Assembly: GCF_037042905.1 (NCBI RefSeq) | Contig: NC_087251.1 | Coordinates: 14,696,001 to 14,760,000 of the forward strand | DNA length: 64,000 nucleotides | From: Lytechinus pictus | Taxonomy: Eukaryota | Direction of reading: 5' to 3' | Part shown: piece by piece, positions 4,154 to 60,340 of the stretch | Numbering within the stretch: the first letter of the stretch is position 1 | Layout: every line of letters starts with the position of its first letter | The notes under the pieces: generated by a model | Database searches by the model: none | Seen by the model: the letters and a program-made list of their open reading frames with translations, nothing else | What the model was told of the DNA's origin: nothing | Position numbers and translations under genes: made by a program

Positions 4154-4566
4154 ATAAACTTAGTTGGCACACCACACATGCAGCATAAACTTCACTATAA
4201 CGTCGCGCGGACGTAGCACACACGTGAAAATTTCACATCTTTTGAGAAAATCAAATGAAGCTGCCACCGGGTGATAGGGTTTCTTCTGAACTTCAAGAAC
4301 GTAGCGGGAATTTCATCTGGAAAAAATCTGGTGTTGACATCAGCCCGGAATCTATATATGTCCACACCAGAGAAGTGCTAAACAACACCAGTTTCGTTTT
4401 GGTCCAACACCAGAAAGGTGTTTATACAACACCAATTATTAGTATTAAAACAGCATCGGTTTGATTCCAAACTGATGTTGTTTCAATACTTCTCTGGTGT
4501 GGACATATATAGATTCCGGGCTGGTGTTAAATCAACACCGGAGTTTTTGCAGTGAAGGGGGTATTA
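4154..4566 (-). mobile_element. Non-autonomous DNA transposon fragment (TACCCC-type end) carrying a truncated CACTG MITE (~4325-4554)
   Basis: 4154-4242 is the reverse complement of 4962-5050, and ~4284-4320 is the reverse complement of ~4646-4682. The inserted segment matches the MITE at 4725-4960. Confidence 0.7.
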
Positions 4567-4724
4567 AATAGTTTCGAAGTAGGTGCTCTATAATCTGATC
4601 CCATACAAATACGCATAGCTTTTTTTTTGTAATACCCTCTTTACACCAGATGAAGTTCCTGCTACGTTCTTAAAGTCCAGAAGAAGCCCTCGGACGTGGC
4701 GCCAACTTTGTTTGATTTTCTCCA

Positions 4725-4960
4725 CACTGCAAAAGATCTGGTGTTGATTTAACACCAGCCCGGAATCTATATATGTCCACACCAGAGAAGTGTTACAAAG
4801 TTTCGTTTTGGTCTAACATCAGATAGGTTTTTATACAACACCAATTAGTATTAGAACAGCATCGGTTTGATTCCAAACTGGTGTTGTTTCAATACTTCTC
4901 TGGTGTGGACATATATAGATTCAGGGCTGGTGTTAATTCAACACCGGAGTTTTTGCAGTG
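4725..4960. mobile_element. Palindromic MITE with CACTG termini (EnSpm/CACTA-like)
   Basis: CACTGCAAAA...TTTTGCAGTG with ~70 bp inverted arms; 2-bp CA direct repeat on both flanks (4723-4724, 4961-4962). Confidence 0.8.
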
Positions 4961-5165
4961 CAAAGATGTGAAATTGTCACGTGCGTGCTATGTCCGCGCG
5001 ACGTTATTGTGAAGTCTATGCTGCGTGCGTGGTGTGCCCACTAAGTTTATTCTACGCACAGAACAGCTCCATGCTGCGTCGAAACGGTTCCCGCTACGTT
5101 CTGACTACAGCCAGAATATTGCGTGACTTGCTCTATTTCATGGATTTGGACGTAGTGCCAACTGA

Positions 5166-5747
5166 TACCCCATTACACCAACGCTTCGTCCATGCAGTTC
5201 TCGCCGCGTCAAAGAAAAATGGTCATGGCGCAGTGGGAACTGCAACATCGTATTGAGAGCGTAGCGAGAACTGTTGTTGAGGTGGCATAGTCTGCATGAT
5301 CTCCGGAGACCAATTTTCCGCATCATGGACTTTGAACATGTCCAAAGTCCACGTAGCGGGAGCGCCGTCTGAAGAGTGCGTAATAATGACACAGTAAGGA
5401 CCTACTAACAACTCCACCGACCTAGCATAGACGTAGAGGACACGGGAAGAACGTGGTAACAACTCTGTCCATGTCTACCGTATTGCTACTACGCGTAGGT
5501 CCTAAGGAGGTCCTTGTTGCGTCATTACTACGCACTGTTCTAACGGCGCTCCTGCTACGTGAATTTTGGACATGTCCAAAGTCCACGTAGTGGAAAATGG
5601 GTCTCCGGAGATCAGGCAGACTATGCCACGTCAATAGCAGCTCTCGCTACGTTCTAAGTCCGCTGTAGCAGCTCCCATTGCGTCATGGCCATTTTGCCGT
5701 TGGCGTAGCGAGAAATGCATGGATGTAGCGTTGTTGAAAAGGGGGTA
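5166..5747. mobile_element. ~580 bp foldback MITE
   Basis: TACCCCATTACACCAACGC...GCGTTGTTGAAAAGGGGGTA; the two halves are imperfect reverse complements over most of the length. Confidence 0.75.
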
Positions 5748-28889: not shown

Positions 28890-29041
28890 CTGTACAGGAA
28901 AGAATGAGAGCAAGAAGAAAGAATACTGGAAAAGTTAGATCGTAATCAAAACTTAAATGTCCTATCTTATTAACAATAATCCAAATATTTTGAGTAATGA
29001 GATTATCACACACGAAAAATAATAGTTATAAAGAACATTAA

Positions 29042-29625
29042 AGGAGAATGAAACTCTTGGAGCAAGTTAGCTTTTGTGAAAGCAGAAAAATCAAAGAATA
29101 AGATCAACAAAAGTTTGAGTAAAATAGGACTAGCAATAGAAGAGTTATGAGCATTTGAATGTCGAGATCACTAATGCTATGGAGATCCTATCATTGGCAA
29201 TGCGACCAAGATCTATGATGTCACAGATGAACAACTCTCCCCTTTTGGACACTGAAAATATACCCCAAAACATATCTTTTTGCTCAATCTAATCATATGA
29301 CAAACGATTCATCAATGATATAATGTTGTGTAACCTCTGTACTTGTCCTCTCATAAAGAGAACACCTCACCTTGTGATAGACTCTATAAAAGTGAGAATA
29401 TAAGTGAAATATGTACTAAAGTAATGAGGGAGTTGTACGTGTGTGACATCACAGATCTTGGTCGCATTGCCAATGGGAGGATCTACATGGCATTAGTGAT
29501 CTCGACATTCAAATGCTCATAACTTTCTTATTATTCAATCACTCTTCCTCAAACTTTCAACAATATGTTTCTTTGATTTTTGTCTTTGATATGGATTCAG
29601 CTGGTTTCAAGGGTTTCATTCTCCT
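29042..29625. mobile_element. Kolobok-like non-autonomous element, family A, copy 1 (intronic)
   Basis: TTAA|AGGAGAATGAAAC...GTTTCATTCTCCT|TTAA with long imperfect inverted arms; reverse complement of 32623-33205. Confidence 0.88.
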
Positions 29626-29946
29626 TTAAGGGCACTAAATCTTGCCTTCAAACGCTTTTGTAATTCTAACCCCAATATGTATACATGGATTAAGTTTACA
29701 TTTGATTAGTTACTGGATTTATTGCAACTGACATAAACACAGAAAGACTAAGTATCTAGAAACTTACTACAATAGGCAGAGACATAAAAAGGAGATAAAT
29801 GCTACCTATGTTCAAGATACCAAAGTCTGATGGCCATCTTTAAAGAATTCTGGCATACATATACTTGACAATACTGTTTAAGTTCCATTTCATTACTCAA
29901 TGAAATCACTTTCAAAAAGAGTAAATTTGTTAAGAGTTCAACTTAC

Positions 29947-30126: not shown

Positions 30127-30830
30127 GGTTCAGGGTTCAAACCCTGCAGTGGCACTTTTGTCCTTTGGTAAGACTTTAAATGTCAAGTCCACCACAGAAA
30201 AATATTGATTTGAGTCAATAGAGAAAAATCAAACAAGCATAGCGCTGAAAGATTTATCAAAATCGGATGTAATATAACATAGTTATTAAATTTTGAAATT
30301 ACACTTATATTTCATAAAACAGTTATATGCATAACTCAGTGACATGCAAATGAGCAAGTCGATGATGTCCCTCATTCACTATTTCTTTTGTTTGAATTTT
30401 ACAATACATAAATTTTTACCAATTTGAAAATAAGGCCCAACTTGACTGAACCATGAAATGTTAAAACAATTGTAATACCTCATGTTCAAGTAGAAATAAA
30501 ACTTTGTTTCACATGATGAGGAGGAAATTAGAATAATTCATATTTCACTTAATAAAATACAAATGAAATAGTGAGTGGGTGACATCATTAGTCCCCTCAT
30601 TTGCATAACGACCAGGATGTGCATACTGTTTTATGAATCTAAGTGAAACTTTAAAATATCATAACTTTCTTATTTAACACCTGATTTCGATGAAATTTTC
30701 AGCATTTTGCTTGTCTGATTTTTCTCTTTTTATTCAAATCAACTATTTGTTGAGATGGACTTGTCCTTTAATTTATATTAAAGTTTGCTACTCAAGCCAG
30801 GTTAGGTAAATGATTACCTGACAGGAACCA
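30127..30830 (+). mobile_element. SINE fragment split by a Kolobok-like insertion
   Basis: B-box-like GGTTCAAACC then GGCACTTTTGTCCTTTGGTAAGAC before the insert; SINE-body-like GCTACTCAAGCCAGGTTAGGTAAATG resumes after 30771. Confidence 0.45.
30180..30767. mobile_element. Kolobok-like non-autonomous element, family B, copy 1
   Basis: TTAA|ATGTCAAGTCC...GGACTTGTCCT|TTAA; related in opposite orientation to 32500-33643. Confidence 0.82.
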
Positions 30831-31027: not shown

Positions 31028-31556
31028 CTGTAAATTGAATTATTTCATAAATAGCAATTGAAAAGAATCAGAAACAAGAAACTGAATATAATTCTGATTC
31101 AGAAGATATTTAAATTGTGTTCAATCCCTTAGGTTTCAATGATAATCCAAGCAATGATTAAAAAAGGGGAACGTTTCTATTTTTTACTTTATTACCAACG
31201 CAATATATTACATAAATAAAAGAAAACATTTCAAATTTCTTGACAAGATATATAAGTGCTGCATGTTTTGGTCACTTGTCAGATGTAATGATTTACATGC
31301 ACATGGTTAGTATGATGGGGGTATGAAAAATATCTCAGAAATTTGTTGGAAACTGAATGATTCTAGCACTTTTGACTCTTTATTATCTTTTTACCTATGT
31401 ACTATAAAAGAAATGAGTTAAGATGAAAAAAATCAAGGGGAAAATAAATAGTTTCTGTGTGGGGGATATTCTTTCTGCTTCAATTCTCTCCATATGTCTT
31501 TTTTATTGAACTATTAAAGGCATACTCTTCTGACTCAACCATGAAATGATAAATAC

Positions 31557-31723
31557 CTCTCAAAGATATTGAGTTCCATGTTCTTGGCTAGGTTATGGGC
31601 ATACTGAGCGAAGTGTTCAACCAATGTACAGTCATACCCTTGGACCTTGAAGTTCATGATTTCATAAACTGTAGAGTCTTTGGCTGGAGGAATCTCTTGG
31701 TCTGAAACCTGTTGTGTCTTCAT
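31557..31723 (-). CDS. MRPL48: MRPL48 internal exon
   Basis: 167 bp, AG/GT bounded: ...YEIMNFKVQGYDCTLVEHFAQYAHNLAKNMELNIFE, matching the MRPL48 YD.TL.E.YAQY.HNL motif. Confidence 0.92.
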
Positions 31724-32385
31724 CTGTATGTGAAATGAAAGATGGCAAAAAAAATGATACTGCAAACTTGAAACTATGAACTGTTCAAAATATATAAGTA
31801 CATAAAAGTGTGCTATCCCAGATTATTTGATACCATTGTTTTAATGTTATGCATTTACTTTTGAATAAACAAGAGACTTTCTTTATGCACATTAATAAAA
31901 GAGTCAAGTTGTGCCTAATTTCCCACATACTGATTGAAAGCTGCCATTCTTTATGTTAACAAATTATCATCCCCCAGTACATTTACATAGCCTATTTGGA
32001 TGGTGAACAGCTGAAATAGCTTTGTGCCATTCAAATCCAGGTTATCAATATAAAATGAAACCTATCAAACCTGTCTTAGCAGCAACCTGTTTTTAATGGC
32101 AACTAAAATCGACTCTAATTTGAAAGGAATATGTGTCAAAGAGCCTGTCTTATAAAGTTCAACTGTCTACAATGGACACTTTTTCTGTTTCCCTGTGGTG
32201 GCCTAAATAGACAGGTTTAACTGTATGTAAAACAGCAGATTTCCCACTTAATATAACAATAGGACATAAATTTGATCACAATGCAATAACAAAGGTTTAA
32301 TGCTATTCATTCAAGAGGATTTGGGAAATTTCATAGCGTTTAATTTTCAAAAGTAGACCTACATACATTATGTGAATATTTTTAC

Positions 32386-32499: not shown

Positions 32500-33643
32500 A
32501 GGACAAGTCCACCCCAACAAAACTTTGATTTGAATAAAAAGACAAAATCCAACAAGCATAGCACTGAAAGCTTCATCAAAATCGGATGTAAAATAATAAA
32601 GTTATGGCATTTTAAAGTTTAAAGGAGAATGAAACCCTTGAAAATAGCTGAATCCATATTAAAGAGAAAAATCAAAGAAACATATTGTTGAAAGTTTGAG
32701 GAAGATTGAATGAATAATAAGAAAGTTATGAGCATTTGAATATTGAGATCACTAGTGCCATGTAGATCCTCCCATCGGCAATGCGACCAAGATCTGTGAT
32801 ATCACACACGTACAACTCCCTCATTACTTTAGTACTTATTTCATTTATATTCTCACTTTTATAGAGTCTATCACAAGGTTAGGTGTTTTCTTTATGAGAT
32901 GACAAGTACAGAGGTTTCACAACATTATATCATTGATGAATCGTTTGTCATATGATTAGAATGAGCAAAAAGAGATGTTTTGGGGTATATTTTCAGTGTC
33001 CGAATGGGAGAGTTGTACGTGTGTGACATCACAGATCTTGGTCGCATTGCCAATGGGAGGATCTCCATAGCATTAGTGATCTCGACATTCAAATGCTCAT
33101 AACTCTTTTATTGCTAGTCCTATTTTACTCAAAGTTTTGTTGATCTTATTCTTTGATTTTTCTGCTTTCATAAAAGCTAACTTGCTCCAAGAGTTTCATT
33201 CTCCTTTAATTTCACAAAACAGTTATATGCACATCATGGTTGGTATGCAAATGAGGAGACTGATGACATCATCCACTCACTATTTCTTTTGCATTTTATT
33301 ATATGAAATATTCTAATTTTCTCCTCATTGTCAAGTGACACAACGATTAATTCCTCCCTGGACATGTGGAATCAGCATTGTTTTAATGCTATATGGTTCA
33401 GTCAAGTTGGTCCTTTTTGTCAAATCTGTAAAAATCGAAATATTGTAAAATTCAAACAATAAAAAACAAAAGAAATAGTGAGGGACATCATCGACTGTCT
33501 CATTTGCATATCACTGTTTTGTGAAAAATAAGCGAAACTTTAAAATGTCATAACTTTCTTATATTACATCCGATTTTTAAGGAATTTTCAGTGTTATGCT
33601 AGTTTGATTTTTTTTCAACATTTTTTTAGGGTGGACTTGACCT
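32500..33643. mobile_element. Kolobok-like family B copy 2, interrupted by family A copy 2
   Basis: AGGACAAGTCCACCCC...GGGTGGACTTGACCT|TTAA; sequence is continuous once 32623-33205 and one TTAA are removed. Confidence 0.82.
32623..33205. mobile_element. Kolobok-like family A copy 2 (nested)
   Basis: TTAA|AGGAGAATGAAAC...GTTTCATTCTCCT|TTAA; high-identity inverted copy of 29042-29625. Confidence 0.88.
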
Positions 33644-37228: not shown

Positions 37229-37687
37229 AAAGGGTGCAACTTTGCACCCTCCTCGATGACTCTTAAATTTTGCTCTTTGACGGGGGAAAAAGGAAGAAAT
37301 GATAAAGATACATCTAGACCCTTTATAAAATACAATCAGCTTACCACCTTTCCGAAAAATATGCTGGAATACAGCGAATTTTGATGAAAAACATCAGGAT
37401 CAGACTGGTTCTTCTTCGATCACCGTCAGCTACAGCTGAGCGTACGAACGTGCCAGCCAATCCACTGGTGCGATCGTACGCTCAGCTGTAGCCGACGGCG
37501 ATCGAAGAAGAACCTGGCTGATCCTGATCTGTTTTTCATCAAAATTCGCTATTTTCCGGCATATTTTTCGGAAAGGTGGTAAGCTGAATGTATTGAACAT
37601 AAATTTATCTGTATTATTTGTTCCCTTTTACCCCGTCAAAAAGCTAAATTTAGGAGTAATCGAGGGGGTTGCAAAATTGCACCCTTT
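37229..37687. mobile_element. ~460 bp foldback MITE
   Basis: AAAGGGTGCAACTTTGCA...TGCAAAATTGCACCCTTT; arms pair almost to a ~20 nt central loop near 37450-37470. Confidence 0.85.
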
Positions 37688-39200: not shown

Positions 39201-41359
39201 GTATCATGTAAGCCATACTTGCAGTGATATATTGTAATAAATGAAGCCAGTGAGCTAACTCAAAGAATAGCACTGTTAGCAGTGCCAATCAAACCCACTA
39301 CTACCACATGCCAAAAGGTAGTGGAAAGAATTTTGCGCTAGCCCGTTCGAGTCTGGGCGGTTCCAGTTCTCGGCTCTGCCTCAAAACTATCTTGTATTGT
39401 GTAAATGCTTGCGCGCATTTGGTAATTCACTGATATTGTTGAGTGGGTGGGTATACACAAAGATCGATACGAAGGCGTGACTTAACTTTTCCGAGGACTG
39501 ATTCGGAGAAATGATGTACAAGTAAGCTATTATAACAAAATGGGTGTACTTTGGAATGGTTATTGGGCGTGGCTGTAATCACATATTAATAATGAGCGAA
39601 CTGAGCTGAGCTCAGCTTAACATAAAATTACTTATAAAAGATGTCCCGCCGATCGTTCATTGACCTGTGATCTATGAGAATTATTTTCCTTTGCGACTTT
39701 GCTCGGAAGATGCATCATTTGTTTATTTTTCTAATAAAAATCACTCATTTTATTGTAAAACAGTAACACCTCAAAACCCTTTTAAAGCATGTTCCAAACG
39801 ATCGCGCATGTCGGCGACTTCCATTCCTAAACATTTGTCTTTGTGACTTTGTCAAGAAGATGCGCGCGACCGCAATCAAAATTTTGATGTATTCCTTTGT
39901 TTTTAAACATCGCCGATTCGATTTTCGATTCGATTTCGATTTTAGAAGCTTAACTGCCGATCCGATTTTCGATCTGATTTTTGATCCGATTTACAACATT
40001 AGAAGAAAAAATAACACAAATTTGTTCTTACATCATTATAATCAAGAATAACTTTACCCGTCCGGCGCGCGTCCGGAATCATGATGTAATTTGTCACGCA
40101 CGAAAATAACTGTTTTTCGTGGAGGGGTATGCGGCAAGTGCGATGCAAAGAAAATGGTTGGTAATGGTTGGTAAATATAAAATAATTTTACCATATTCAT
40201 AATTTTCATATTTGGAATAGCAAGTGCGATTTTTCTCGATTGTATTTCCTCTAGTTGTCATTTTTAAAGCACTGAAATAAAGGTGTCCGGCAATAGGATA
40301 CACTGCCATACTATTAGTATACTAACAGGTTGTTTGCTTGACAGTGACATTGTCTTGACAGAAATAGCCCTAGGGCTAGGCCATGTAGGCCTAGCCTATT
40401 ATTATTAATCGGTCTAACGTTAAGTCACTTGTCTAGAGAATCGTTAACCTCTCTACTAGATCTACGTAAATGTTAACCTGTTGTTGCCCCTGAATCAACA
40501 TACATCTGCCCACTGACCACTCCTAGTACCAATGAGGTCCAAACATTAACATGTATGGACCTCATAGGCGACATTACCCAAATTATGGGTTGGACAATGC
40601 TGTTCTGATTTCCAACCCAAGACTTTGGTAAATGTACACCTTAATACAAGTTAGAGTTATCCGATATACCTTTCATTCGGACGGCAAACCTTTATTTAGT
40701 TGTAAAAATAGTTTAAATTAAAATCGATTATTGTTAAACTTACATTTCAGGCCCTTTTTGTTGATTTTCGGTGAGCGTTCCACACAGCTGCGACGAGTGA
40801 TCAACTCCGAAGTGATACGCATACTGGTCAGCTGATCGGTCAGGTGATCGGTTGGTTATCTTTTTGTCAGACGTTCATAATTTATGTTAAGCGTATCAAT
40901 CTTCAGTATCTTGATTTCAAAGCATCAGTATTGCAGAGAAAAGTCATTATTGATTGGAATCAGTGGCGGGGGGGGGGGGGGTTGGGGTGAGCATTTCTGC
41001 CCGTTCCCCCTTTTGAGATTTATAGTAAACATTTTGGAATTAAATATTTTGTTAATACTAGTTATGTGCCCCCCCATCCCCCCTCCCTTATGAGAATCAC
41101 AGCATTATTTGTAATGGGGATATTTCGTTCATATTCTTTTCTCTTTTTTGCCTTTTTTGTGCTTGTCAAATTTTACTGGGAACAAATTAACAATATGACT
41201 TTCTATACATCACTTTTAGGGACAAACTTTTTATAGGGGTGGGGGCTTGCCAAATATAACGGTGGAAAAAGTGACCTTCTTTTTTAGTGACAACTTTATA
41301 AAAAAATTGTCAAATTTTACGCGAGACAAAATGACCTTCGATCATTGCTATAGTTAAAA

Positions 41360-41390
<31 letters not shown>

Positions 41391-41803
41391 GGGGGGGGGG
41401 GTTGCCAAATATCACGTGGACAAAATGACTTTCCCTTTTCTTATTTTTGTGGGGGGGGGGGCTTGCCGAATATTACGCGGACAAAATGACTTTCATTTTG
41501 AGTGACCATTTTTTTTTTAACTTGTCAAACTTTACGCGAGACAATATAATGACCGGTTTTTTTTTTTTTTTCAAAGCATCAGTATTGCAGAGAAAAGTCA
41601 TTATTGATTGGAATCAGTGGCGGGGGGGGAAAAGAGAAAAGAATATGAACGAAATATCCCCATTACAAATAATGCTGTGATTCTCATAAGGGAGGGGGGA
41701 TGGGGGGGCACCTACTTAATTTGGAAAATCTTGGATGCGCCTCTATATAGTTTGAATCATAATGAAGATTAAGATCATGCGTATATATAGCTTACATCCA
41801 CGG

Positions 41804-42719: not shown

Positions 42720-43542
42720 ATCGATTTTGACTTGATAGGGGCCTATACCTGATGGAATTAGCTTCATTCAATATAAAATCATAACGGATAGAACGCCTTG
42801 AATACAGGCCAAACAGCCTAACGACATTGCCGTGTCACGTGACAACCAGTATTAAACGAGAATGTGCACAACCCTATGGCGACAAAATTTGCCGCAAAAG
42901 TTGAGCAAGTTCTGGACAAAAAGGCTTCAATACCCCAAGAAAAGACCAGGCGAGTACTATTTATACATTTTTTCAATTTAGTAATATCTAGAGTCTAATT
43001 TAAGAACATATTTCGTCATGGAGCTCCATGGTAAGATCAAGTAATTTAAGTCCAACATTTAATTCGCGTGCACTCACTTTTTTAACACAGGAATTAATAG
43101 CCTTGGTGCTTAGAGTGCCCACTGACATTGTCAATGATTTTAACTTTACCGGTACGCTACCGGTGCAGTAGACCAAAAGCTTCAGTCTCTGTATTTTGGT
43201 TGTTCCGCTGAACTGCGTTGGCTCACTGACAGTAAAATGTCAGAAATTGTTGAATAAATCCCCAGAAACGACGGTTATTCCTGTCTACCGGTGCAGCTGC
43301 AGTTTATTTGACGGGAAATAATAAGATGGCAAATATAGCGATCTTCAACGCTTATATATAAGCGTCGAAATTTGTAGCCATCTCCTTGTATTAGTCTATA
43401 ATATACGACGTGTCAAATTGTAGCGAACTAGTTCGCCATTTCCAGATCTCCTCTATATATATATATACGAGGGGGAATTGTAGCGAACTAGTTCGCTATT
43501 TTCCAGATCTCCTCTACACAAAGAAGAATTGTACAGGAAACC

Positions 43543-43651
43543 CGCGCATGCGCGATACGCTCGTTCGATCGCCAGCGTAGTGCGTGACGTCATGTTTCAT
43601 TCACAAATCTTGAGCTGTGATCTCATTGGGTGTTTTGGCTCTCATTTGCAT
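43543..43651 (+). promoter_or_regulatory. Promoter-like motif cluster inside the left TIR
   Basis: NRF1-like CGCGCATGCGCG (43543-43554), CRE TGACGTCA (43585-43592), inverted CCAAT (43625-43629), octamer ATTTGCAT (43644-43651); donor GTAAGT at 43834. Confidence 0.45.
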
Positions 43652-45039
43652 ATTTTCCCATAATACAAAACCTATGTAGTGCGAGAAGTTTCTCTGCGAA
43701 CCACCGATCAACCTCATACTAAACACGACGTATTTCCTTCAAGATTCCGAGTTGAAAATCTCATTTTCTTCATACGGTGTAGCTACATTACCTCGGAAAA
43801 TCTGATGATATTTTGCGGACTTCTCGTCATTTGGTAAGTCATATTTTTGAAGATATTTACCGTCGAGTAGTGAAAATCGCATGACTGTGTTCGTTGTTTA
43901 CTGTGTATCAATGTGTGCAAAGTGTATGTTAGCGACATGTATGGATACAAAGCGACATACGGAAAACCGTCTACACCGATGTTGATTTTGTGGACTGTTT
44001 TGCGGTGGTGTTTGTGCTAGCCCGCATTGGTGTATTTTAAGCATGGCGAGCGTTGCATTGTGATCGGGCTTCGCTCGGGTGTTCGTGAAGGGCCGTGGAA
44101 TGCGTGTGGAGCTCGGCCATGCGGCCTTGGGGCGTGAATGTAATGAATGGCAGCTGCACCTGTTGTTTGTATGCCTCTGAAATTGAAGCTCTCTTTCTAT
44201 TTATGGCATGGCGAATATCCTAGTGTTTTAGGAATATAAGTTTGGGCATTTTATTTGTTGGGACTTTCGTGATACTGATTTTACTTTTAAAACTGGACAC
44301 TGATTTTTTTTTTTCGGTAAAGCCAGGGACAATCAATGGAATTGTTGAGACATGATAATATATCATAGAGCTATAGCTCTATGATAATATCAATAATTAT
44401 AGACCCTACAGAAATACAGGAAATTAAATTGAAAAATAATGCAAATTATAATCACTGAAGTGCGGATGTGTACCAAATTGATATGGATGGAGATTGATTT
44501 TGATTTTGTTTCCTTCAGTATTTTTTTTTGCAAAAATCAAATATTTTCCTGCCCTGTTCTTTTTCTTATCAATTTTTTTTTTATCTTTGAATTACCAATT
44601 ATGACAGCAATAAATCAAACTCAAAAGTTCAAACTAGTATGGTCTATTTTCATTGTATAATCTACAGCATAATCCGAAGATGACTGACACTGATTGAAAG
44701 ACTGTATTTCACAAGACCCAAAGGACAAAGGTCGAGAGCTACAAGTTCATATCGCATTTTACAACTGCTCAAGAAGGTGAAGGATTTGGGGATCACTAAA
44801 TCAAGACGACGATATTCGGATATAAAAACAATTTTATTTTTATATGAGATAATCTTTCAACTTTATTTTTACTTAAAATTGAAGAAGTGAATAATCTATA
44901 AAAATTATGAATATGATGCTGAGAAGGATCGAAAACCATTATCTGTCAACAATGATGCACTGTAAAAATGCTATTATGTATATATGGTCATAATGTTCTT
45001 GTGATTTATTTGTAATTAATTTATGTATTATGTTGTTTC

Positions 45040-45262
45040 ACTGTTGAAAATAATTCAAACAATGTTTAATATGTGAATTGCATAGTAGTTTAAACATTTT
45101 AAACAAGTGTTTAAGAACTTTATAAACAACAAAGTTTAAACTCTAATATTTAATCATCAATAAATAAAGCATGGTTGTTTAAGATTTTGAACACTTATTT
45201 AAACTGTTTAAACTACTATGGGATTCACACAGTAAACAGCATTGTTTGAATTATTCTTAACA
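45040..45262. mobile_element. AT-rich foldback MITE relic
   Basis: TGTTGAAAATAATTCAAACAATG...CATTGTTTGAATTATTCTTAACA and inner ATAGTAGTTTAAACA / TGTTTAAACTACTAT arms. Confidence 0.65.
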
Positions 45263-45547
45263 TATATATATATATATGCTCAATAAATTCTTATGCATTA
45301 AATTTGCCTTCAATAAGAATTTCCAGTTCAGTATGAATTATACAAAAAACATGGAATTCTGGAATGACATTCACTTTCACGGAATACATGTAAAAACACT
45401 GTTCATGAAAAGTATAATGAAAATCATCAAAAATAAATTAAAGCCAAACTGTAAAGAGTAAGCCAACCCCTATATCATGATTTCTTTTAATAAAGATTTA
45501 ACAATTTGCAACTGCATCAACTTTATTATTTTTATATGTCACTATAA

Positions 45548-45708
45548 TACCCCAGTCACATTTCCCCTACGGCGGCCGTACGGCAAGTCGAAAACAGCAG
45601 TTTAACATTATTTTGTACCAGTGTACATATACATGGTTTGAATAAAAATGAATAAAACGGCCGTTTTCGACTCGCCGTACGACCGCCGTAGAGCAAATGT
45701 GACTACTA
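45548..45708. mobile_element. Small palindromic MITE, copy 1
   Basis: AGTCACATTT...GTACGGCAAGTCGAAAAC / GTTTTCGACTCGCCGTAC...AAATGTGACT; same family as 45923-46089. Confidence 0.8.
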
Positions 45709-45922
45709 TACTAAGGACGTCAAAATTTAAAGAACATCTTTTAATGGAAAACTGGAAAGGATTGATATAAAGTCCAACGAAGTTACTTAAAGCCAGATTT
45801 ATTCACATATTGATCAATTAATTTACCCCATATTTTCTACATCTTTTGAAATTGTGATTTAATTTTCTGAATGCGTGTTTTAGTTCTGTCAACCATTGTT
45901 TTTCATGTCTATGACATACTCG

Positions 45923-46089
45923 TACCTCGATCGGTCACATTTGCCGCACGGCGAGTCGAAAACAGCATTTTTATTCATTTTTATACATGGATAAACCACC
46001 AATATGTAGCTGGTACAAAAACAATATTAAAACGACTGTTTTCGACTCGCCGTACGGCCGCCGGAGAGCAAAATAATGTGACCGAGGTA
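45923..46089. mobile_element. Small palindromic MITE, copy 2
   Basis: TACCTCG...GGTCACATT...ACGGCGAGTCGAAAACAG / CTGTTTTCGACTCGCCGT...AATGTGACCGAGGTA. Confidence 0.8.
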
Positions 46090-46328
46090 TAAGGACATAG
46101 CCCCTCGGTCCGTGAAATCCCAAGATCAATTGTTCCGAGGCTTCCAAATAATTAATGGACTTCTGCATTCATTAGACGGGGTCCCAAACTTCTCTTTATA
46201 AATTGAATGTTTTTCAATTTCAGATATAATTAATATAACTTTCATAAATAATAGCTTTCTGTTAAAGTTTATAATTCGTATCCAATTATTTCGTTTTTAA
46301 TATGAATTATAAGTATTTTCATTTGTTT

Positions 46329-46532
46329 CAGGGGCGGATCCAGGATTTTTTAAAGGGTTTCAACCAAAAATAATTAGGGGGATTTGGTCTTCACTTTCTA
46401 AAGGGGGGGGGGGGGCACGCTTCTGTTTTAACACCATTTTTAAATTACAAATTTTACTTGTGCCTCTCAATGGTGGGGGGGGGCGCACGGGCCGGCCGTG
46501 CCCCCCCCCCCCCCCCCCCGGATCCGCCAGTG
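46329..46532. mobile_element. hAT-like MITE
   Basis: CAGGGGCGGATCC...GGATCCGCCAGTG; flanks ATTTGTTT / ATTTTTAT (6 of 8 match). Confidence 0.7.
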
Positions 46533-48517
46533 ATTTTTATTGTTCTTTCATTTGTTCACCCATGATCACGAATGTTTTCATAATGCATACATGTACCTCA
46601 CGATTTTTTTTTAAATACGATTCTAAATGTTATGAAAATAGTTCGACAGGCCTATTTTTTTTTGCGTACCACACTCATGGAGCTATACTGTTGCTACTCT
46701 GCATCAGCGTGTAGTGTGCGAGGGGGGGGGGGGTAGGATGGTCGCAAAGAGCGATCGAGCAAAAGAGAAAGTGGTCCATAAATGAAGAGGGGATGTTGAG
46801 AATTGAGATCATGTGTGTGTGTTTGGGGGGGGGGGTGTTCGAAGCGAATGTTGTCACTGCTGATTACGATGATGGTTGATTAATGTTTACATCTTAATTT
46901 GGGCGATTTTGGAAATGTTTTCTTGTACTGGGGAGAGGTGAGTGATTCAGTAAGTTTCCATAGAAGTGCAGTTTTAAAGTTACAGAAGAGGATTTCACCC
47001 AATGAAGGGAATTCGGGAAACACCATTTTCAAGCAATACTAATTCGATCACGTGCCATCGGCTTTAGGGCCGAGTGTTCTCGTTCACATTCCAACTATCA
47101 TTTCATAAATAGGCACTCTTACAAATTAGGCCGATGCCGTTGTAAAGATAACTATTTTTGAAGCGTTATTCAGATATAAAATATATAAAGACAATTAAAA
47201 TTGAACAATTCATCGAAATTTCCAACGATATTCAAATAAAAATAGTATCAACTCGTGTAGAGATAGGGGTGAACAGACGAAATACATGCTCCTAAACGTT
47301 CAGACAAATCAATTAACTTGATATCTATATCTTTCGATGAATTGTTCAATTCCATCAGAAATATGCTGCATGAAGTCTTGTCAGATTGTTGAATGTGAAC
47401 TTCTATTGGAATCTGTTGAATCACGTACCCCTCCCGATCCAAGGTATATATTTCCCAATCACCATAGATAACATACGGTTACATAATATTGTATCTTATT
47501 TACATTGTTAGGTACTGACGATATCTTCATAAATACATTCACAATTATTTCATGAAATGTCACCATTGCCGTGGCTGTGACATGTTAAAGCCTGAAAGCT
47601 ATTACATAAAATATTGTTTGCACTTTGATATAATAGAGGTCAGATATATTCTTGTCATCGAATATAAACATTCCATTATTATGCACCATGTTTCAAAATG
47701 GGTAAGAAAATTACATTACCATCGGCATCCAGATAATTAGTCCATGATTAGACCAGGGAGATCGGAGTCTACCCCTTTTTTTGGAATTTCTATTTTCTCA
47801 GCACATCGGAGTGAGGAAAAACCACCAAAAACCCTATATTGGTATTAAATGATAACCATTTATTGTAAACAACGTTTAGGACTGAGGGAATTGGGGGAGA
47901 GGGTATGGGGAGGGAGAGTATTTCATTTTCCAATAAAATGCAAAAGTATAATATTTTCGTGAACATGAACGAAATAAACAAAAAGTTAATAGCTCAACAT
48001 CTTTATTGAATTGTTCAGTAGAACAATAATACTAGCTGTAATAATGTTAAAAACATTTCAGTCATTGTAATTACATGTGTTTCATCAATCTCAATATATT
48101 GACAATGAAAATAATTTTTTAATATAGAAAATATATTTTATATGACTATTGTGAATTTTAAATAATCCCATTTTAGATCGTTGATTAAACCACCTTTCTG
48201 AAAACAATCACTTTGATATCTCATGTAAAATCAATTTTAGATAAAAAAAATATTTTCTGTTAAAATTGATTTCTAAGATTCCTGTCTGAAAGTTGATGAA
48301 ACACCTTAGCTCGAGTAGAAATGCATAATACAAAGATATTGAATACTCAAACTCTTATAATGATATTGTCCAGCAAAACAGAAAATTGTCAAATAGTTAA
48401 TGAAAAATAATTGAATTATAAACCAACAATTAAGTCAAATAGAATATGAAAATTATAACACACAATCCCGTCACATTCGTTCTCACTCTCGTAGTTGTAG
48501 GATGGGGGGGGGGGGGT

Positions 48518-48729
48518 GGGGTCGGGCGTCCGGACACTATATTTTTGAAGCCTTCTTTTTTGTCTTTGCATTACACTAAAAGTATGAATTCAATGGTTGT
48601 AATCATCTTGTTCTCCATAATATTTCCTAATATCTTGTACTAAAAATTGATGAAACTTCGCTTGTAAATTTTTCCAAATGACTCTAAAATTGATCGTCCG
48701 GACACACAACCTGTCCATACAACTGGGTA
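48518..48729. repeat. Dispersed ~210 bp repeat, copy 2
   Basis: Match to 36676-36885. Confidence 0.85.
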
Positions 48730-49354
48730 GACTCATGCTAGTCTAGAAGCACTCCCACACTCCAGACAAAGTGTCACAAGTACATGAATTCTCGTAAGCA
48801 CACAGAAAATACAACTTATAATATGCTCTAATAAAATGTAGTAATGTACTGCCTTTCAGGGTTCAAACATCCTACAAATACACTCTTTTATAACATCAAA
48901 TGATTCTATTAAAAAACAAAGTTAATTTATGAAGTCTGCGCCGAGCATCTAATCATAAGGCAGTCTACCAGGAAATTCATCTATCGCGGGGGCAACGCAG
49001 AATTCAGTACAGACAAGCATACATGTACATTAAATACGCTGTGCACTGTACTCTATGCAAATACAATTTATGCAAGCGACCTTCGGCCTTGCGTAACCCG
49101 ATGAAAACCACATGTTTTGCTTAGACTTCGGACACTGCCTGCCGAAGTGCCGATATCATCCGAACATGCGCCCGAAATCTACACGCTGGCATCTTTACCC
49201 GACAGAGTGTTGTGCTCCGTGAGTCAGCCGATCGCGCGGTGTAAAGATTCTCACACACAGCGCTGGGCGAGGAAGGGAAGAGGGTCGCGCGATCAGCCAA
49301 TCAGCGTGCAGGGAATCCGTCTACTGTGTGCCTATGGGGAAAGTTCTTCGTGCT

Positions 49355-51240
49355 CTATATACAAACGACGGGAAATTGTAGCGAACTAGTTCGCTATTTT
49401 TCGGATCTCCTCGATATATACACGAGGGGAATTGTAGCGAACTAGTTCGCTATTTTCCAGATCTCCTCTATATACAAACGACGGGAAATTGTAGCGAACT
49501 AGTTCGCTATTTTTCGGATCTCCTCGATATATACACAAGGGGAATTGTAGCGAACTAGTTCGCTATTTTCCAGATCTCCTCTATATACATACTACGGGAT
49601 TTGTAGCGAACTAGTTCGCTATTTTTCGGATCTCCTCGATATGTACACGAGGGGGAATTGTAGCGAACTAGTTCGCTATTTTTTTATTTTTCCAGATCTC
49701 CTCTATATACATACGACGGGATTTGTAGCGAACTATATACGAGGGGGCATTGTAGCGAACTAGTTCGCTATTTTTTTTATCTCCTCTATATATACACCAG
49801 GGGGGAATTGTAGCAAACTAGTTCGCTATTTTTCGGATCTCCTCTACATGTATACGACAGGAAATTGTTGCAAACTAGTTCGCCATTTCTCATCTCCTCT
49901 CTAAAATATAAACATGGCAAACTGTAGCGAACTAGTTGGCAATTTTTCTGATCTCTTCATATACACGAGGGGGAAATTGTAGCGAACTAGTTGTCATTTT
50001 TTCCAAAGCTTACATTATTGTGAAGGCTTCAAAGTGAAAATCTGCAGGTTTTGGCTGTATATATTGATGCCATATTGTCAAATTGTAGCAGACTAGTTCG
50101 CTATTTTCCAGATCTCCTCTATATATATATACGAGGGGGAATTGTAGCGAACCAGTTCGCTATTTTCCAGATCTCCTCTATATCCATACGACGGGATTTG
50201 TAGCTAACTAGTTCGCTACTTTTCGGATCTCCTCTATAAAATTATATACACGAGGGGGAATTGTAGCGAACTAGTTCGCTACAATTCCGTCTCTTGTATA
50301 TATAAAGATTAGAAAAATAGCGAACTAGTTCACTAATTCCTCCTCGTGTATAAAATTTTATAGAGGAGATCCGAAAAATAGCAAACTAGTTCGCTACAAT
50401 TTTCCGTCGTATATATAAAGAGGAGATCCAAAAAATAGCGAACTAGTTCGCTACAAAAGAAGAGATCCGAAAAATAGCGAACTAGTTCGCTATAATTTCC
50501 CGTCGTATATATATAAAGAGGAGATCTGGAAAATAGCGAACTAGTTCGCTATGATTTCCCGTCGTATATATAGGGAGAGGAAATCCGAAAAATAGCGAAC
50601 AAATCCCGTAGTATGTATCTAGAGGAGATCTGGAAAATAGCGAACTAGTTCGCTACAATTCCCCCTCGTGTATATATCGAGGAGATCCGAAAAATAGCGA
50701 ACTAGTTCGCTACAATTTTCTGTCGTATATAGAGGAGATCCGAAAAATAGCGAACTAGTTCGCTACAAAAGAAGAGATCCGAAAAATAGCGAACTAGTTC
50801 GCTACAATTTCCCGTCGTATATATATATAGAGGAGATCTGGAAAATAGCGAACTAGTTCGCTACAATTTCCCGTCGTATATATATATAGAGGAAATCCGA
50901 AAAATAGCGAACTAGTTCGCTACAAATCCCGTACTCCGTAGTATGTATCTAGAGGAGATCTGGAAAATAGCGAACTAGTTCGCTACAATTCCCCCTCGTG
51001 TATATATATCGAGGAGATCCGAAAAATAGCGAACTAGTTCGCTACAATTTCCCGTCGTTTGTATATAGAGGAGATCTAGAAAATAGCGAACTAGTTCGCT
51101 ACAATTCCCCCTCGTATATATATATATAGAGGAGATCTGGAAAATAGCGAACTAGTTCGCTACAATTCCCCCTCGTATATATATATATATAGGCCTAGAG
51201 GAGATCTGGAAATAGCGAACTAGTTCGCTACAATTTGACA
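49355..51240. repeat. Minisatellite of ~55-60 bp units with core palindrome TAGCGAACTAGTTCGCTA; orientation inverts at 50272/50273
   Basis: About 33 full or partial cores counted by eye. Unit TTGTAGCGAACTAGTTCGCTATTTTCCAGATCTCCTC-(TA)n-linker runs forward to 50272, then as the reverse complement. Confidence 0.95.
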
Positions 51241-52029
51241 CGTCGTATATTATAGACTAATACAAGGAGATGGCTACAAATTTCGACGCTTATATATAAG
51301 CGTTGAAGATCGCTATATTTGCCATCTATAAAATACCGTATTTGACGATCTGCATATTCCCTACATGTATGATAACGTGTGGGACCGAACATAAACTCAA
51401 GATCTAAAATCGTGCTCGAAACAAGTATTTTTACCAGTTATAATGTTATTTACTCATATATTGCAACTCACATTTCTTTCCTTACAAGGACAGCGTGATT
51501 TCGAACAACATTCAATATGTTTTTCAACATTTTTATCGCAAATTTGAAACCGAATTGTGAGGAAATCCGACAGTTCTGTGACCCTCTGTTTAAGGTGTCG
51601 CCGATCATCAAAAATAAAAAAATTGTGCACTGATCTGACGTACTGGATGGAAATGTCAAAGCCCGGTTGACTCCAGTATAACGTTAGTCAGGGCTGGAAA
51701 CGGGTCGGGAACAAAAAGTTCAATAATTTCCTCTGAAATCTTCTGACGAAAATGTTATCACTCCATTCCCCCCCCCCCCCCTAATCAAGGCCAGGGGCCA
51801 AAAAAAAATGTAGACACTTTTATATAATTTAAAATATATTTTTACAATTTCACATTTTCCTTAAGAAGTGAATTTGTTTAATTGCTGCGACTGGCCTAGT
51901 GAAATTTTACACAAATATTATGACTCTCATTATTATGCGCATATACTATCAATAAAATATATTTTGATACTTTGTTACTAGACACTCATTAATTTTCTGA
52001 ATCTGCTCAGGACAAGTTCCTACTAATGA

Positions 52030-60182: not shown

Positions 60183-60340
60183 GGGTGTTTCATAATGCTG
60201 TTTGTAAGTTAAGAGCAACTTTAAGAATGACTGGTGAACCTTTCTTACGCGCTAAATAATCACCAATGAACATTTAAATGGTGAATATCATTTCCCACAA
60301 GGAAGGATCACCAGTCGTTCTTAAGGTCACTCTTTCTTGT
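60183..60340. mobile_element. Degenerate intronic MITE
   Basis: GGGTGTTTCATAA start; inverted arms TTAAGAATGACTGGTGA / TCACCAGTCGTTCTTAA. Confidence 0.6.

Follow-up and report, generated by a model that had tools for sequence, protein, structure and literature searches.

The strand switch of a palindrome-cored tandem array as the probable meeting point of the two arms of a putative, interrupted foldback DNA transposon

The tandem array at 49379-51230 of the DNA stretch analysed here (64,000 nucleotides, referred to as the window) probably represents the two mirror-image arms of a single 2,163-bp, likely non-autonomous, foldback DNA transposon. The change of strand within the array would be the point at which the two arms meet in the middle of this element, and it was likely produced by a template switch guided by the repeated core. 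The window itself reads as animal genomic DNA, with a G+C content of 35.5%, many microsatellites and palindromic repeats, no stop-to-stop frame longer than 182 amino acids and no Rfam family along its length.

Within the array, 31 sites differ at no more than four positions from an 18-bp palindromic core, TAGCGAACTAGTTCGCTA, and 22 of them are perfect. The units measure approximately 57 bp, and the cores are separated by linkers of ~39 bp which fall into several subtypes and carry a TA run in their centre. Judged by the arms adjoining the cores, 14 sites are oriented forward and 16 reverse, and one site (50264) shows the same arm on both sides. Together with a forward half-core at 49726 and a reverse half-core at 50593, this amounts to 15 forward and 17 reverse units, in agreement with the first-pass annotation of this DNA, which had counted about 15 and about 17; the 32-bp perfect palindrome which it had quoted for the switch is present exactly as given and surrounds the junction core 50264-50281. 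With Tandem Repeats Finder scores of up to 790, the array is far beyond chance.

The core had further been described as much better conserved than plain (TA)n linkers. The higher conservation was confirmed by comparing 32 units at fixed offsets, yielding 97.0% for the core and 85.1% and 89.4% for the two arms, a measure that penalises the arms for linker subtypes and slippage; the linkers themselves, however, are the ~39-bp subtypes and not simple TA runs. The four A's adjoining the core are kept as well as the core itself (96.9%). The motif ACTAGT occurs 30 times in the array; 22 of the 29 intervals are 53-63 bp long, and the other seven measure 39, 39, 68, 92, 104, 106 and 115 bp. A CRISPR-like array was ruled out, the linkers being near-identical subtypes instead of unique spacers. 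The X-box of RFX proteins was also ruled out, by comparison with its consensus, as the half-sites here face the opposite way and have one extra base. The strand is predicted to fold, with a z value of -25, which is no more than any inverted array of this kind would give. Only a small number of RNA reads, derived from both strands, covered the two units of the outer left arm, at depths of 2.9 and 2.1 (approximately 6 in 100 of one run read).

The same core scan detected two further cores at 43421 and 43481, ~6 kb to the left of the array and inside a terminal inverted repeat: the segment 43324-43516 mirrors 51127-51327 at 95.5%, the first 113 bp of the left (43324) and the right (51327) end are identical, and so are 119 of the first 120 alignment columns. 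The left end of the feature consequently lies at 43324-43516 and not at 49355, where the annotation had placed its start. Beyond AGATGG on the left and CCATCT on the right, the similarity of the ends breaks off abruptly, and ATA follows directly outside both. These 3 bp are all that the flanks have in common, and taken by themselves they are weak evidence of a duplication; the chance of a 3-bp match at the local composition is 0.018, for the one copy available, and neither an empty site nor a second copy of the centre was seen. Alternatively, the ends could be read as a TAA duplication with ragged TAG ends.

With the insertion described below removed, the element opens and closes with a 97-bp terminal domain. 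Between these domains lie 16 forward cores, then the junction core, whose centre is at position 1,108 of 2,163 and so at the midpoint, and finally 16 reverse cores (Table 1). The two orientations are thus better described as the two arms of one element than as an inversion inside a satellite. Aligned with each other over ~1.1 kb, the arms show 864 identities, 66 mismatches and 303 gap columns, and the order of the linkers differs between them. Mismatches per 120 columns amount to 0-2 in the outer 460 bp and to 6-19 further in, and the near-identical ends suggest either a young insertion or a recent arm-to-arm conversion. The alignment of the terminal domain to two array units scored better than 300 of 300 shuffles, and judged by this alignment the domain looks like decayed array units.

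Table 1. Positions of the parts of the putative foldback element and of the insertion within it (window coordinates)
Feature	Positions	Strand	Basis
Left candidate 3-bp target-site duplication, ATA	43321..43323	.	Sequence comparison of flanks
Left terminal domain, starts AGATGG	43324..43420	+	Mirror of 51231-51327
First two forward units of left arm, ending in left CTCTA copy 43512-43516	43421..43516	+	
Later insertion into linker, 5,836 bp, Transib-like	43517..49352	.	CAC...GTG ends, CTCTA duplication
GT-AG intron within insertion	43834..44667	+	Skipped in X1 and X3 contigs; donor GTAAGT, acceptor TACAG
Right copy of 5-bp duplication, CTCTA	49353..49357	.	Sister-linker identity
Left arm continued, 11 forward cores and half-core 49726	49358..50002	+	
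Non-array stretch inside forward block	~50003..50075	.	Single copy in window, best other match 14 bp
Three forward units, starting like outermost arm units	50076..50263	+	43411-43516 vs 50076-50180, 93.5% over 107 bp
32-bp palindrome, meeting point of arms	50257..50288	.	Core scan; position 1,108/2,163
Diverged first reverse linker, predicted hairpin loop	50282..50317	-	DNA fold; distance of 9 to the nearest linker
Right arm, 16 reverse cores and half-core 50593	50318..51230	-	
Right terminal domain, ends CCATCT	51231..51327	-	Mirror of left domain
Right candidate 3-bp target-site duplication, ATA	51328..51330	.	

Reads or contigs of the runs X21, X1, X3 and X9, out of 23 listed, were compared with 42900-49340. 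Array units were found in contigs of two organisms, and the summed depth, which is not a copy number, was raised over 43330-43544; in X9, it reached 871 over the left end and 4-10 over 44190-44834, again not to be read as a copy number. No loose ends at 43324 occurred among the rows listed for these runs. The left flank of the element (43169-43288) consists of a repeat with very high depth in each of the four runs, and contigs of some runs differ at 43209-43235. Still further to the left, a 12-bp palindrome, TGTCACGTGACA, at 42833-42844 is followed by an ATG frame near 42877, possibly a promoter and first exon ~450 bp from the element.

The large segment between the outermost two units and the remainder of the left arm had to be accounted for. 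The idea that 43324-51327 forms a single element of 8 kb whose interior is coding was rejected, as the interior splits a linker and is flanked by a 5-bp duplication, CTCTA, for which the chance is 0.0013. When the insertion and one CTCTA copy are removed, the restored linker is identical to the linker following core 49435 (39 of 39 positions). Since the restored linker equals this sister linker, the 5,836-bp insertion came later and split an existing left arm, and the order of events is foldback element first, Transib-like insertion second. Contigs of three out of three contig runs begin to match at the edge of the insertion (43517, 43517 and 43515) and are preceded there by 432, 39 and 28 other letters, as seen among the 24 pieces listed of ~10,000; this supports, without proving, the occurrence of its left end in other contexts.

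A 5-bp target duplication and CAC ends are marks of Transib transposons (PMC1131882, PMC4411706). The insertion resembles non-autonomous members of this group as described there, in its 5-bp duplication, in CAC at both ends and in having another transposon as its target, and its termini, CACAAAG and CACGAAG, are to be compared with the Transib consensus CACAATG; it differs in having an imperfect terminal inverted repeat of only ~10 bp. An A-rich nonamer 23 bp past the heptamer was found at neither end of the insertion. Searching Pfam with the six read-through frames of 43517-49354 and ten shorter pieces gave no match at the curated cut-off (best hit HTH_IclR, E 0.099), and accordingly none to a transposase related to the RAG1 core in the six frames. 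Three minus-strand frames of 46560-49352 compared with PDB sequences yielded nothing below an E value of 1.3. A 76-amino-acid frame (47251-47478) reached a best score of 0.75 in the ESM Atlas, which is a lead at most. We call the insertion no more than Transib-like because the nonamer is absent and a transposase was not found. Its intron, skipped in contigs of two runs (Table 1), suggests transcription and splicing of some of the copies; of these runs, X3 is only guessed to be RNA, and the kind of X1 is unrecorded. The CpG observed/expected ratio is 1.26 and 1.11 at the ends of the insertion compared to 0.75 for the window. Several nested palindromic repeats lie inside it, and the segment 36676-36879 recurs at 48515-48710 (88%).

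Turning to the flip, the symmetry of the core means that the switch can be placed only within 50264-50281, so that its earlier assignment to the exact centre of the core is more precise than the data allow. Palindromic arrays are prone to assembly and chimeric-read artefacts, and it was asked of the flip, too, whether it could be one. No opposite-strand joint was seen for left-arm cores among the 15 of 178 joints listed, an observation also compatible with an artefact. The two sides near the flip, on the other hand, are not copies of each other, with 119 identities, 19 mismatches and 24 gaps over 150 nt. Moreover, the inverted ends, lying 8 kb apart and placed independently, demand a flip, which is found at the midpoint, and DNA of a second organism, sequenced in run X9, contains tandem units as well (joint 43502 to 43462). 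On these indirect arguments, an artefact is very unlikely.

The centre of the element is more decayed than its outer parts. The ten central cores carry 16 mismatches in 180 bases and the 23 outer cores 1 in 414, the central zone having been chosen for this comparison after inspection of the data. In the left arm, the cores decay towards 49980, and the innermost four forward cores before 50003 have 1, 3, 2 and 4 mismatches. They are followed by the single-copy stretch 50003-50075, which may be a remnant of a middle domain or filler DNA; at the flip itself, there is no middle domain. This arrangement permits another reading, in which 50003-50075 is the true middle of the element, the three following forward units are a patch derived from the outer end of an arm, and the flip at 50264 is a later repair scar. 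The decay of the left-arm cores towards this stretch agrees with such a history, as does the likeness of 50076-50180 to the outermost units, the linker after core 50086 being of the outermost type. Mirrored decayed units would then be expected to the right of the stretch but are absent, and the terminal 87 bp were not copied there. We regard this history as possible but doubtful; its mechanism, homology-guided switches at cores, is compatible with our preferred explanation, and only the order of events would change.

In the immediate surroundings of the flip, the best mirror axis does not sit in the junction core but in the next linker, at ~50300. Over 150 nt on each side, the mirror score was 164.5 about this linker axis compared to 133 about the core. 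For the last forward linker, the alignment with the second reverse linker (40 identities, 3 mismatches, 2 gaps) is better than that with the first (30 identities, 6 mismatches, 9 gaps), and the variant AATTTTATAG occurs only in the last forward and the second reverse linker. The minimum-energy DNA fold places the loop at 50295-50305 and pairs core 50264 with core 50318. Counting against this axis, when homopolymer and TA runs were collapsed, four other linkers lay slightly closer to the last forward linker (distance 6) than the second reverse linker did (7), even though the latter had the last forward linker as its nearest neighbour. The mirror symmetry is also limited to one linker, as the next linker pair does not match.

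A second group of observations concerns breaks at the cores. Both half-cores (49726 and 50593) are broken at or beside the centre of the palindrome, so that core centres account for the breakpoints of two of three independent deletions of at least 10 bp, a pattern with a rough chance of 0.075; the third is a 20-bp linker deletion which is present twice and was counted once. The pattern hints that core centres break preferentially. It might be explained by a core extruding as a small hairpin whose tip is nicked by a structure-specific nuclease or by the element's own transposase, whereupon the end folds back and primes synthesis, giving rise to both the flip and the half-cores. The location of the flip inside a core would be consistent with such tip nicking, and so would the junction core, which is perfect among nine imperfect neighbours. 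Against it stand the rough chances, 0.075 for the deletions and 0.17 for the perfect junction core, and the 2-bp microhomology at both core-centre deletions. Fold-back at the tip of one core should moreover leave the two linkers next to the flip as mirror images, and these mirror worse than the offset pair. On balance, an origin of the flip by tip nicking is unlikely. Its more far-reaching version, in which each 18-bp core is a hairpin site nicked at its centre by an element transposase or a host nuclease, and the arms are programmed break points that spawn foldback derivatives and satellites always folding at a core, appears more improbable still.

Alternatively, the core might be recognised by a site-specific recombinase or resolvase, which would invert stretches of the array. 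Such an enzyme could account for a perfect 18-bp dyad kept with a single mismatch in the outer units and for the change of orientation at a core. A conservative inversion would leave a reciprocal junction, but a reciprocal pair of arms was found at 0 of 33 cores within the window, and the single switch in 33 cores is located at the midpoint, where any foldback element must turn. The sites loxP, FRT and dif consist of two inverted binding arms around an asymmetric spacer of 6-8 bp; the core is fully symmetric and has no such spacer. Nor was a candidate enzyme apparent, given the absence of any Pfam family in the six frames of the insertion and of long frames in the window as a whole. We thus judge a recombinase very improbable. 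Of the two mechanisms proposed in the first-pass annotation, strand exchange or template switching, a core-guided template switch fits the data; a recombinase acting at the centre of the core is not supported, in view of the missing reciprocal junction and the mirror axis in the neighbouring linker.

The explanation that we favour, a meeting of two arms by a core-guided template switch, starts from a parent element which would have lost its interior during repair or replication. The longest word common to the opposite strands of a pair of units is the 18-bp core, and elsewhere it is 6 bp. As the core has an identical sequence on its two strands, any forward core forms a direct as well as an inverted repeat with any reverse one; and because no other word longer than 6 bp is common to both orientations, a deletion or template switch that relies on homology between the arms will fall in a core. 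The join between a forward and a reverse core would then fall within the palindrome in the absence of any site-specific enzyme. The local pattern, in which a diverged linker separates the last forward linker from its mirror counterpart, the second reverse linker, indicates a pairing of neighbouring cores, with one linker as the loop, which may have taken place when the join was formed or in a later arm-to-arm conversion. The flip likely fell on the palindrome as the only long common word of the two arms, and would then reflect selfish DNA of a familiar type instead of a genetic switch.

The conservation of the cores could be due to their serving as repeated binding sites of a transposase supplied in trans, by analogy with Galileo. 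Since the array is the arm of an element with terminal inverted repeats, the earlier proposal that the core is a transposase site is a fair guess, and the core may be considered a candidate. Self-correction of the palindrome and arm-to-arm conversion could also keep the cores uniform.

Sequences beyond the window were searched as well. An exact 23-base pattern had no match in viral contigs, metagenome contigs or prokaryote genomes. The bare 18-mer was found at two metagenome loci, each with one core in unrelated flanks, and these are not relatives. At locus L001 (1057-1316), the 18-mer occurs once, within a patch of repeated inverted motifs of the type TTCGTTATA and between unrelated flanks; the patch resembles a terminus of some other small transposon.

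Several neighbouring features of the window deserve mention. Two palindromic elements of 593 bp (29037-29629 and 32619-33210), 94.8% alike, mutually inverted and with TTAA edges, bracket an exon-sized frame on the minus strand (31535-31822) that matches ribosomal protein S10 with an E value of 0.0044, under the curated cut-off. At 41569-41714, there is a small templated insertion with a strand change but no palindromic core: its first part (41569-41629) repeats 40915-40975 exactly, and the second (41630-41714), which adjoins it directly, is an inverted 98.8% copy of 41063-41147. Other imperfect palindromic repeats, some of them nested, were located at 4154-5050, 5168-5744, 30176-30771, 37229-37687, 45042-45262, 45547-46090 and 60211-60334.

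As read here, the element is a clear and dated example of a foldback element collapsing to a geneless, near-perfect hairpin. It shows why joins in palindrome-cored subterminal repeats would fall in the palindrome with no dedicated enzyme, and it yields both an 18-bp sequence as a candidate site for a transposase and a nested succession of events. If core centres were indeed cut sites throughout the family, for which the present support consists of two deletions, the arms of a transposon would be linked to programmed breakage and to the birth of satellites.

Of the features by which the foldback class is recognised, the element shows long terminal inverted repeats composed of an outer domain and tandem repeats whose order differs between the ends. 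Modular inverted repeats with tandem repeats, uneven arms, geneless copies and nested insertions have been reported for Tetris, Tm1 and Galileo (PMC4079207, PMC3169594, PMC4168063), and the Tetris paper cites FB, TFB1, Galileo and the sea-urchin foldback element of Liebermann et al. 1983, as well as extra transposase sites in the Galileo repeats (PMC4079207). Like the element described here, Tetris of Drosophila virilis is a foldback element with tandemly repeated domains in its terminal inverted repeats, but it has 220-bp units, a middle domain and duplications of 8-10 bp (PMC4079207), compared to units of 57 bp, a perfect 18-bp palindrome, arms that meet directly and a candidate duplication of 3 bp in the present case. 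Tm1, a Mutator/Foldback element of root-knot nematodes, shares the composite inverted repeats with repeat numbers that differ between the ends; most of its copies are non-coding and MITE-like, and some contain nested insertions bearing their own duplications, as observed here (PMC3169594). It differs in its 14-bp units, 9-bp duplications, asymmetric terminal motifs and known MULE transposase (PMC3169594). Copies of Galileo in Drosophila willistoni likewise consist of just two long inverted repeats with internal tandem repeats and inserted transposons, but Galileo belongs to the P superfamily and has 7-8-bp duplications and 140-bp repeats (PMC4168063).

Assignment to the Mutator-type foldback elements (Tetris, Tm1) was rejected, as the flanks share 3 bp and not 8-10 bp. 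Duplications of 3 bp are described for PIF/Harbinger, Zator and AcademX (PMC4122938, PMC10045372), and the candidate duplication, known from a single copy, fits all three alike in length, and no transposase was found that would point to one of them; PMC4455052 and PMC11071193 yielded no further information on termini.

With regard to the flip, foldback inverted duplications in yeast are similar in that their centre is set by short inverted repeats and a spacer (5-bp repeats and a 35-bp spacer in one case) and does not depend on a site-specific enzyme (PMC10622511). The yeast product, however, is a near-perfect long mirror, whereas here the mirror extends over a single linker, between older arms that have slipped independently. 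The satellite macro-dyads of Tribolium madens resemble the array in that the orientation of their tandem repeats changes and a diverged unit marks the inversion site, but they are pericentromeric, extend over many kb and comprise conserved inversion sites in the thousands (PMC13081366), in contrast to one 2.2-kb element with terminal inverted repeats. The element, whose family may already be catalogued, is best placed among the foldback transposons that carry tandem subterminal repeats, as a member into which a Transib-like element was later inserted.
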